A stretch of DNA of 39,189 nt from NCBI GenBank assembly GCA_031399105.1, contig JANNON010000320.1, positions 1-39,189 of the forward strand, written 5' to 3'. Below the pieces are notes generated by a model. It was not told where the DNA came from and searched no databases. It was given only the letters and a program-made list of their open reading frames with translations. Each line of letters opens with the position of its first letter. Position 1 is the stretch's first letter. The DNA is from Blastocatellia bacterium (GTDB lineage: Bacteria > Acidobacteriota > Blastocatellia > Pyrinomonadales > Pyrinomonadaceae). The translations under genes were made by a program, and so were the position numbers. Positions 22,353 through 24,255 of this stretch are shown piece after piece.

Positions 22353-22492
22353 ATTTATGGCCCACTGCAGAGTCTGACACTCTATGACATGCAGTGACAT
22401 TAACTAACAATTCTTCAACAGGTTGCAGCCGTCACAGGAACAATTTCTTTAGCAGTTTTTGACATCGATTTTCATCGATTTGCAGAGAGTCG

Positions 22493-22510
22493 AGTGACGA
22501 ATCGGTGACA
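22493..22510 (+). repeat. 18-bp exact direct repeat AGTGACGAATCGGTGACA (partner at 37322-37339). It is a candidate integrase arm-type site.
   Basis: Exact 18-mer match read from the sequence. Both copies lie inside the island, ~140 bp and ~75 bp from the respective core repeats. More GTGAC motifs occur nearby (22403, 22523). Confidence 0.5.
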
Positions 22511-22671
22511 TTTTTTGAGTCCCGTGACCTCCGCATTTTCAGAACTCACGTTCCTATAGGTTGAACAGCCTCACCTTCTGGTTTTGTCATTGCTGTTTTC
22601 TTTGTGTAATTGCACTATAAAATCTAAGGCAGCGACTTCATTAGACAATCAAGCGATTCGAAGGAACCAAA

Positions 22672-24255
22672 ATGTCCCCATCTGTGAAACTATCAGGAAC
22701 CGAACTCGACAACGCCCTTTCCTACACCGAAGTGACAGGCGCCTCAGATTTCTTTCCGATGCCGTTTGAGGTTGCTGCGATGCGCCACTCATGGGAACGC
22801 GTCCGACCAGCATTAGAAGGTGTGGAGCTTCTCTCCTACGAACCAAAAGAATGTTTTGAGATGACAGCTCCTAAGCAACGATGTCTCGTTCGACCCGTTC
22901 ACCTGCCTGACCCGCTCGACGGATTGTTATACACCGGACTGACTTTTCGTCTCGCTGGTTCGATAGAAGCGAGGCGGAGTCAGTACCAAAGTGAGAGGGT
23001 ATTCTCTTGGCATTTCAATTCAGCAGCTATTGGAAGCCGCGATACATTTGTTTCCGATTGGGAGAAGCTAACCGAACGCCTTGAGACACTGTCGACCACC
23101 TATAGCTACGTCGGCACAACGGACATTGTCGATTTTTTTCCTCGGGTCTATCTTCACCGACTTGAGAATAGCCTCTCAGATCTTTCTCACGATCCCTTAG
23201 CGACAAAAGCTCTCATGAGATTCGTTGAGGCTTGGTCTCACGGTACCTCCTATGGAATACCGACCGGACCACGATCTTCGAACTTCCTCGCCGAAGCTTT
23301 GCTAATTGAAGTCGACGAGTACCTGTTGAGTTGCGAGATTGAGTTCGTTAGGTGGGTAGATGACTACTGGATATTTGGAGCTTCGGAAGCCCAGGTTGTT
23401 TCCGGGTTATTTCGTCTAGGTGAACGTCTAAATCAAACCCAAGGATTGAGTTTGAATCCAGCTAAAACGCGAATTCGAACCGGTGTTCAATTTATCCAGG
23501 AAGTTCTAAATCGAGATGATCCAGTTGCTGATCTGCGATCTCAAATCATGGATGTAGTGTTTGAAGAAGATGGCCCTTACGCTGAGGTAGATTATGAATC
23601 TTTGACTCCAGAACAAAAAGAGGCGATCGATGCACTCGATGCACGTTCTACCCTTGAGGGTGCGCTTGAGGGAGATCTCGTCGACTTAAAGGTGGTTAAG
23701 TTCATACTAACTTTTCTCTCAGCCTTTCGGCGTCCTGACCTGGTGGATCTTGTGTTAGATAATTTGCCCCGATTATTGCCAGTTGGGGACAGTGTTGCCA
23801 AATTTTTCGACGCGCTTGATGATGCCGAAGAGGCTAGTCATTCAACCATCGGCAAACGCATTCTAGAGTACATCGGTGGTAATGATTTCGTTCCGGATTT
23901 CCAGGCTATGTGGTTGCTGGACCCGTTTACCAAGTCGACCAATTGGAACAATTTGATAGAAATCAGAAAGCTGGCCCGTGAAGCTAAGAACCGGTTCGTC
24001 CGGCGTCAAGCGATCCTAGGACTGCGTCAAATCGCAGATCGCTCTTCACTGCTGGATGCTAAGTCAGCTCTGGATGATCGCCGGGATTGGGAGCAGCGAG
24101 CGATCCTTTACGCATGCTCCCGACTCCCGAAAGATGAGTATGAAGCTATCATCGCGCAAGCAGGCGGCCACGGGGGAGCATGGAGCATCGCAGATTGCCT
24201 TAAGAAGGCCGTGCTCGCTTACATGAAGGCGGAAACTGCCGTTGCTGTGTCCTAA
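22672..24255 (+). CDS. Stand-alone defence-type reverse transcriptase (Abi/UG-like) with a C-terminal HEAT-like helical-repeat domain.
   Basis: 527-aa ORF with AAGGA 8 nt upstream of the ATG. RT motifs appear in order: RCLVRPVHLPDPLDGLLY (motifs 1-2), TDIVDFFPRV (A), GIPTGPRSSNFLAEALL (B), FVRWVDDYWIFG (C, VDD at aa 229-231) and GLSLNPAKTRI (D). The C-terminal helical repeats include FVRRQAILGLRQIADRSSLLDAKSALDDRRDWEQRAILYA. Confidence 0.9.
   Translation: MSPSVKLSGTELDNALSYTEVTGASDFFPMPFEVAAMRHSWERVRPALEGVELLSYEPKECFEMTAPKQRCLVRPVHLPDPLDGLLYTGLTFRLAGSIEARRSQYQSERVFSWHFNSAAIGSRDTFVSDWEKLTERLETLSTTYSYVGTTDIVDFFPRVYLHRLENSLSDLSHDPLATKALMRFVEAWSHGTSYGIPTGPRSSNFLAEALLIEVDEYLLSCEIEFVRWVDDYWIFGASEAQVVSGLFRLGERLNQTQGLSLNPAKTRIRTGVQFIQEVLNRDDPVADLRSQIMDVVFEEDGPYAEVDYESLTPEQKEAIDALDARSTLEGALEGDLVDLKVVKFILTFLSAFRRPDLVDLVLDNLPRLLPVGDSVAKFFDALDDAEEASHSTIGKRILEYIGGNDFVPDFQAMWLLDPFTKSTNWNNLIEIRKLAREAKNRFVRRQAILGLRQIADRSSLLDAKSALDDRRDWEQRAILYACSRLPKDEYEAIIAQAGGHGGAWSIADCLKKAVLAYMKAETAVAVS

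Follow-up and report, generated by a model that had tools for sequence, protein, structure and literature searches.

A UG7/DRT8 reverse transcriptase without conserved partner gene, located at the edge of a tRNA-Ala island in a Blastocatellia bacterium

A stretch of 39,189 nucleotides (nt) from a Blastocatellia bacterium (contig JANNON010000320.1 of assembly GCA_031399105.1, positions 1 to 39,189, hereafter the window) carries on its + strand, at positions 22672-24255, a gene for a reverse transcriptase (RT) of 527 amino acids, which is preceded by about 320 nt of repeat-rich non-coding DNA. We consider it likely that the enzyme is a partner-less member of the UG7/DRT8 group, that the 320 nt in front of it are composed of an attachment-site (att) arm, a lineage-specific spacer and a ribosome-binding segment, and that its chemistry is of the template-free kind, similar to that of DRT4, DRT6 and AbiK. 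The gene would then be the first cargo gene of a defence island of about 15 kb that a tyrosine integrase has inserted into tRNA-Ala(cgc). An earlier, sequence-only reading of this DNA took the 320 nt for a single leader of the RT and considered that it might give rise to a template RNA; in this respect our results lead elsewhere.

Among PADLOC profiles, the best match of the RT is Drt8 (UG7), with an E-value of 1.6e-113, a score of 378.6 bits and residues 8-519 aligned to positions 3-490 of the 493 in the profile. The runners-up are RT_UG21 (176 bits) and UG20 (145 bits), and the profiles of Drt4, Drt6 and AbiP2 score 53-70 bits. When applied to ten relatives of the RT spanning 28-80% identity, the Drt8 profile gives 289-440 bits. 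The RT does not group with the enzymes of group II introns or retrons: NCBIfam models group_II_RT_mat (41.7 bits, cut-off 300) and retron_St85_RT (25 bits, cut-off 235) stay below their thresholds, which amounts to 42 and 25 bits against 379 for Drt8. Drt8 is the UG7 group of Mestre et al. (2022, NAR 50:6084; PMC9226505). By profile match, we assign the RT to UG7/DRT8, a class-1 defence type of UG/Abi enzymes. The general type had been recognized correctly before, as both profiles and fold now indicate; the group can now be named more narrowly, as UG7/DRT8 and not AbiK or Abi-P2.

The reading frame is intact and the gene is present in a single copy in its own genome. Pfam RVT_1 matches the product with 34.9 bits and an E-value of 1.6e-08 (cut-off 29.6). 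Fingers and palm occupy residues about 55-280 and contain D151 and D154 of motif A as well as D230 and D231 of motif C, the latter within RWVDDYWIF. Among 90 aligned homologues, all of full length and none identical to another, which are the basis of all residue frequencies below, D151 and D154 are kept in 100% and D230 and D231 in 99-100% of the sequences, which bears out the palm motifs and the catalytic VDD noticed earlier. The palm is followed by a flexible linker (residues 281-320, window 23512-23631) and by helical repeats of the alphaRep type (residues about 313-526). The AlphaFold2 model, made with 51 homologues, has a mean predicted local distance difference test (pLDDT) value of 91.3 and a predicted template modelling score (pTM) of 0.90, and it consists of an RT core and approximately 200 residues of stacked helices, the part from about 313 to 526 being all-helical. 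At the sequence level, residues 437-504 resemble designed alphaRep/HEAT-like proteins in a profile search of PDB sequences, and HEAT_2 (PF13646) is found in precomputed annotations of many homologues. The HEAT-like C-terminus seen in the raw sequence is thus present also in the model. Homologues at 28-92% identity retain the full length of the protein.

Another RT-like open reading frame (ORF) exists in the same genome (G000:C844:1054-1461, - strand). It lies in an open frame of 543 amino acids, is 28% identical over the palm and is unrelated to the gene discussed here.

The RT appears to work without a dedicated neighbour. We surveyed 128 related loci from genomes and metagenomes together with the window (129 loci in total), called their ORFs and clustered the neighbouring genes by BLAST. 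No cluster other than that of the RT itself occurs in more than 8 of the 129 loci, the commonest one being an integrase family, and no effector is fused to the RT or conserved beside its gene, in agreement with what had been concluded from the window only. Genes located 3´ of the RT on the same strand in distant relatives are mutually unrelated (IF-2B, metallophosphatase, Dus, Abi_alpha and others). Further, same-strand ORFs upstream of the RT in close relatives, inspected by eye at their N-termini, are either heterogeneous or spurious-looking GC-rich frames.

Two phylogeny-congruent variants of UG7 have been described, one with a PD-(D/E)XK protein and one "not associated with any gene" (PMC9226505). 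Because no neighbour is conserved across the 129 loci, we place the RT, on the basis of these sequences, in the partner-less variant (variant 2 of Mestre et al. 2022). The resemblance is manifold: the RT consists of the same RT and alphaRep parts, is of similar size, matches Drt8 best and over its full length, and resides without conserved neighbour on a mobile element among defence genes. It represents a sub-clade that is 28-37% identical to most of the UG7 loci recovered, including proteins from Pseudomonas and Roseovarius, and is otherwise not distinctive. The experimentally validated DRT8 consists of a UG7 RT and a PD-(D/E)XK protein. Its RT belongs to the same group and the catalytic aspartates needed there are also present here; it differs in possessing the PD-(D/E)XK gene, which adjoins the RT neither in the window nor in any of the related loci.

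The DNA between the island end and the start codon (22353-22671) cannot be regarded as one leader, since it is composed of three pieces with different histories. The first is the island arm (att arm, 22353-22545), which is independent of cargo. The second is a lineage-specific spacer (22546-22653, + strand). The third is a ribosome-binding segment of 18 nt (22654-22671, + strand) with GAAGGAACCAAA before the ATG; of the DNA upstream, nothing else accompanies the RT reading frame. When 22290-22700 was compared with the 128 loci by blastn and nhmmer, the sole match was locus L001, whose RT is 92% identical in amino acids. Blastn homology with L049 (RT 90% identical) starts at 22654 and that with L082 (81% identical) at 22655, in other words 18 nt ahead of the ATG. 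The spacer is shared with L001 only, a locus of the same island type that has a 22-nt insertion there, and it is absent from L049, L082 and the two RT-less genomes described below. Presumably, the spacer holds the promoter and 5´ untranslated region of the RT gene. A scan for promoter and terminator consensus sequences returned a single weak site on the + strand, located in the arm at 22384-22411, with no sigma-70-like site in 22546-22653 and nothing convincing near the ATG.

The arm has a distribution of its own. A search for 22353-22620 in 200 genomes of the same family gave matches to its initial 165-190 nt in G075 (93% identity) and G183 (87%) only. These genomes are 98% and 97% complete, respectively, and yield no RT match at E<=1e-3 with a query that does recover the RT in its own genome. 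In both of them the arm abuts a tRNA-Ala 3´ fragment, and the integrase of the window is present as well (91% in G075, 89% in G183). In G183, the integrase gene lies on the same contig as the arm, about 37 kb away from it, together with an intact tRNA-Ala(cgc) and a further copy of the 18-nt box described below. By its sequence, G183 therefore seems to contain the same island backbone as the window, loaded with different cargo. Conservation of the arm in these RT-less loci stops at about 22537-22545.

It is the arm that holds the conspicuous repeats. CATCGATTT occurs at 22463-22471 and 22473-22481 with a period of 10, two copies against 0.02 expected in 319 nt. GTGAC is found four times on the + strand and GTCAC once, against 0.24 expected for each, and nowhere else in the window is GTGAC as dense. 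CACTGCA at 22363-22369 faces TGCAGTG at 22390-22396. The tandem repeat and the GTGAC boxes are as reported by the sequence-only reading; the inverted repeat is also real, only its position had been given as 22373-22405. The arm further contains an 18-nt box, AGTGACGAATCGGTGACA, at 22493-22510. An exact second copy in the same orientation (37322-37339) falls within the 3´-terminal part of the integrase gene, 48 nt away from the tRNA. The box lies beside the integrase gene and the tRNA also in G183 and G075. In the alignment of the four arm copies, the whole segment that begins with CACTGCA, includes both CATCGATTT units and ends with AGTGACGAATCGGTGACA is invariant. We infer that the pair of boxes has the geometry expected of arm-type sites flanking attP. 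The GTGAC-type boxes, including the 18-nt box, are most likely binding sites of the recombinase or of an accessory protein.

Close relatives of the RT leave little space for anything else. Where the RT is at least 43% identical, the non-coding gaps have a median length of 97 nt on the upstream and 83 nt on the downstream side; both gaps are often shorter than 100 nt, and in several loci shorter than 60 nt. Four mutually independent findings thus show the stretch not to be an RNA linked to the RT: it is absent from RT relatives of 81-90% identity, is present where there is no RT, lacks support as a structure (see below) and would often have little room beside the gene. Its repeat-rich part rather belongs to the island backbone.

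What reaction the RT performs can be judged from its fold. In a Foldseek search with the model, the top 14 matches are all DRT6, DRT4/UG15, AbiK or Abi-P2, with probability 1.00 and template modelling (TM) scores of 0.40-0.62. The best full-length matches are DRT6 (9wy8, TM 0.59/0.62) and DRT4/UG15 (9vdo and 9l9s, 0.55-0.58), followed by AbiK, Abi-P2 and AbiA; DRT2 and DRT9, which depend on a non-coding RNA (ncRNA), are poorer matches (0.35-0.40). A profile search against PDB sequences likewise gives UG15/DRT4 as the best match (5e-21), then DRT6, Abi-P2 and AbiK. DRT4 (UG15) and DRT6 (UG12) are thus the best whole-length matches in structure and profile, and the RT shares with them the single-gene layout and the alphaRep tail. 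They belong nevertheless to other UG groups, as their profiles score only 68-70 bits on the RT compared with 379 for Drt8. The abortive-infection DNA polymerases AbiK and Abi-P2 (PDB 7r06, 7r07 and 7r08) have in common with the RT the class-1 fold, that is an RT-like palm and a C-terminal domain of helical repeats, but their relation to it is much weaker (AbiP2 53 bits, TM 0.45-0.52).

DRT4 is a single gene whose product makes random single-stranded DNA (ssDNA) without template, primed on Tyr125 (PMC12783706). This ssDNA is stabilized by a phage DNA-binding protein until it becomes toxic, and the same trigger activates DRT6. By analogy, we suggest, with somewhat more than even confidence, that the RT polymerizes DNA in a protein-primed, template-independent manner and brings about abortive infection through its product. 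In such a scheme, the RT would start DNA synthesis on a hydroxyl side chain of its own and extend ssDNA without RNA template. The ssDNA would then turn toxic, or serve as a signal, during phage infection. Hydroxyl residues conserved among the homologues are S112 (99%), Y160 (99%) and Y303 (86%). Y303 is located in the only segment modelled with low confidence (281-320), which is presumably flexible, within the motif GPY...DY..LT.EQK; we regard this linker as a candidate priming loop.

Several observations weigh against the picture drawn so far. In an alignment by hidden Markov model, Tyr125 of DRT4 falls near residues 129/130 of the RT, within a weakly aligned segment, and these residues are D129 and W130. 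Position 130 is Tyr in 34 of the 90 homologues and Trp in 35. Because of this, a priming site like that of DRT4 is at most putative in the RT. The UG7 sub-clade with Trp at this position may prime elsewhere, for example at Y303 or S112. Further, the chemistry of DRT8 is unpublished and the partner-less variant has no published phenotype; on the mechanism of DRT8/UG7, searches of the literature gave nothing past Mestre et al. (2022) and reviews that call it unestablished. The sole experimentally validated DRT8 is the PD-(D/E)XK nuclease variant, and the nuclease is required there (PMC9226505). As for the upstream DNA, the centre of the arm is invariant and so uninformative on RNA structure either way. 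Finally, a copy of the repeat CCTCCGCATT at 22528-22537 sits exactly where conservation of the arm ends. Because this second copy resembles the att core, the left boundary of the island may be placed either at 22352 or at about 22537.

Four other explanations have to be considered. The one closest to the earlier reading is that the leader encodes a structured ncRNA, serving the RT as template or scaffold as in DRT2, DRT3 and DRT9. These systems share with the RT the palm and the defence context. In favour of such an RNA, the leader is densely packed with repeats that are not random, the CATCGATTT repeats can be paired with the 18-nt box in a long imperfect hairpin, and the stretch is conserved in L001, which has an RT too. 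However, DRT2, DRT3 and DRT9 need a conserved structured ncRNA beside the gene and there is no such RNA at this RT: the same stretch is conserved in two RT-less genomes, is absent from RTs of 81-90% identity, and in many close homologues the flanks are too short to accommodate an RNA. Neither do the sequence properties of the leader speak for it. Rfam, searched at a permissive threshold over 21900-24500, reports a tRNA fragment only; the leader folds with z = -1.25 relative to its shuffles, 13 of 100 of which are equally stable; and none of the 44 pairs predicted in a consensus fold of the four arm copies is compensatory. The CACTGCA/TGCAGTG stem loses two of its seven pairs in L001 without compensation. 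The stretch does not code for a protein of appreciable length either, as had been stated before, because an ORF search of 22353-22671 finds nothing longer than 34 amino acids wholly inside. Moreover, the RT agrees in fold with the template-independent polymerases of class 1, which have an alphaRep domain, and not with the ncRNA-dependent RTs of class 2. Altogether, we judge a template RNA in the leader to be extremely unlikely. Only slightly less so is the view of the RT gene as a decaying or non-defensive passenger without current function. The gene is indeed patchy in its bacterial family, with matches in 7 of 201 sampled genomes and the remaining matches at most 33% identical, and there is no phenotype on record for the partner-less variant. 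A passenger would hardly be expected to show an intact frame with all catalytic residues conserved, a confident model, homologues that keep full length at 28-92% identity and a position among other defence genes, so we hold this view to be very unlikely.

The two remaining explanations supply the RT with a partner. It might need a nuclease as in the two-gene DRT8, provided either in trans or by the ORFs at 26105-26890 and 26981-27484. In the tested DRT8, which protects E. coli against T5, both active sites, that of the nuclease included, are required for defence (PMC9226505), and for the partner-less variant Mestre et al. consider that nucleases might act in trans (PMC9226505). The two ORFs lie 1.8 kb downstream of the RT and have no match in Pfam, PADLOC or NCBIfam. 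The homology to L001 does not extend past 26215, which means that the two ORFs are not passed on along with the RT; together with the lack of a conserved neighbour in the 129 loci and the single-gene nature of the closest solved relatives, DRT4 and DRT6, this makes a nuclease partner unlikely in our opinion. The other candidate is the AbiE module that adjoins the RT and consists of AbiEi (24409-25014, + strand) and AbiEii (25011-26036, + strand); the two might, for example, be co-transcribed, or the RT might be controlled together with AbiEi. The same AbiEi gene stands beside the RT in the three closest loci (window, L001 and L049), and in L049 the RT directly follows AbiEi with a gap of 82 nt, in the usual place of AbiEii, which is absent. 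Yet AbiEi adjoins the RT in only 3 of the 129 loci, and these are kin and not independent cases; gene order varies among them, and AbiEi and AbiEii form a complete, self-sufficient pair by profile. We therefore hold functional coupling of the RT to the AbiE module to be quite unlikely.

The removal of a false lead is one outcome of the analysis: the repeat-rich stretch that resembles the template RNA of DRT2 or DRT9 is better read as the attachment-site arm of an island. The other is an intact, well-modelled and partner-less UG7/DRT8 enzyme whose cassette has clear bounds, beginning 18 nt ahead of the ATG and ending with the stop codon. DRT8 is among the few DRT types for which the DNA product and the trigger are unpublished, so that a compact single-gene member presents a reasonable substrate for biochemistry.

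The island itself is of a familiar type. The intact tRNA-Ala(cgc) (37387-37462, - strand) lies beside the gene of a tyrosine integrase (36299-37372, + strand; Pfam Phage_integrase, 3.6e-31). At the distal end, a displaced 3´ half of tRNA-Ala (22303-22352, - strand) represents a copy of the att core and forms a 50-nt direct repeat, 88% identical to 37386-37435. An integrase beside the intact tRNA and, at the opposite end, a directly repeated 3´ portion of that tRNA are what characterizes tRNA-targeting islands, and the position of the RT at an island edge, proposed earlier, is confirmed in this way. Islands with tyrosine integrases and attP of the lambda/P4 type have the same constituents, namely intact tRNA and integrase, displaced tRNA 3´ half and arms with boxes; variable cargo on a conserved backbone is another common feature. 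Unlike in the layout with a single attP, several core remnants occur here, in the manner of a tandem array, and boundaries are not unique. The repeat CCTCCGCATT, a conserved part of the core, has seven copies in the window where 0.1 would be expected, always on the same strand (1618-1638, 2733-2753, 2905-2914, 22102-22111, 22334-22343, 22528-22537 and 37417-37426), the copy at 22528-22537 being the second one at this end and lying in the arm. Several copies are inside recognisable tRNA-Ala 3´ fragments, and 22162-22349 resembles 1451-1635 at 71%. Since several copies reside in tRNA fragments, tRNA-Ala(cgc) seems to carry a tandem array of islands.

The surroundings of the two RT-less arm copies deserve a short description. 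In G183 (locus L134, G183:C24, 9819-10111), an alkyl sulfatase gene neighbours a site at which about 57 nt resembling the integrase tail (37329-37385) directly adjoin the arm and tRNA fragment; the site looks like attP or like a junction of tandem islands. In G075, a genome of the same genus (locus L133, G075:C93, 8142-9442), dihydroorotate-dehydrogenase-like genes follow on the opposite strand at most 75 nt after the tRNA fragment and arm. They are either unusual island cargo, or the arm is a remnant in the chromosome; a different contig carries the matching integrase.

Downstream of the RT, AbiEi is recognized by Pfam (DUF6088, AbiEi_4) and PADLOC (AbiEi, 5e-73), and AbiEii equally by Pfam (AbiEii) and PADLOC (AbiEii, 4.2e-94). 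By their sequences, the two are a type IV toxin-antitoxin or abortive-infection pair, a separate module that adjoins the RT. Complete and beside the RT, the pair occurs in the window and in L001 only, within a block of 3.9 kb that is 91% identical in nucleotides. L049, a metagenome contig, has AbiEi alone and upstream of the RT: comparison of its positions 3236-5593 with 22654-25033 of the window reveals the same AbiEi gene at 81% nucleotide identity, directly 5´ of the RT. There, homology to the AbiE module extends over the first 22 nt of AbiEii, and 38 nt further on the RT cassette starts. This arrangement may have arisen by a module swap that placed the RT in the position of the toxin. One could imagine that the RT cassette slots behind AbiEi in place of AbiEii and that the RT then becomes an alternative toxic output under AbiEi control; we consider such a scenario, and separately from it priming at Y303 or S112, improbable.

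The spacer between the RT and AbiEi has repeats of its own. Between 24258 and 24391, GCTAATCGCGCCA is present twice with an inverted copy in between, and within 24356-24391, TTCTGTCAGAAA/TTTCTGACAGAA form a perfect inverted repeat of 12 nt. Such repeats are probably elements of an AbiEi operator, used in autoregulation, or of a terminator, and would lie outside the RT system. Homology with the AbiEi module of L049 begins only at 24322.

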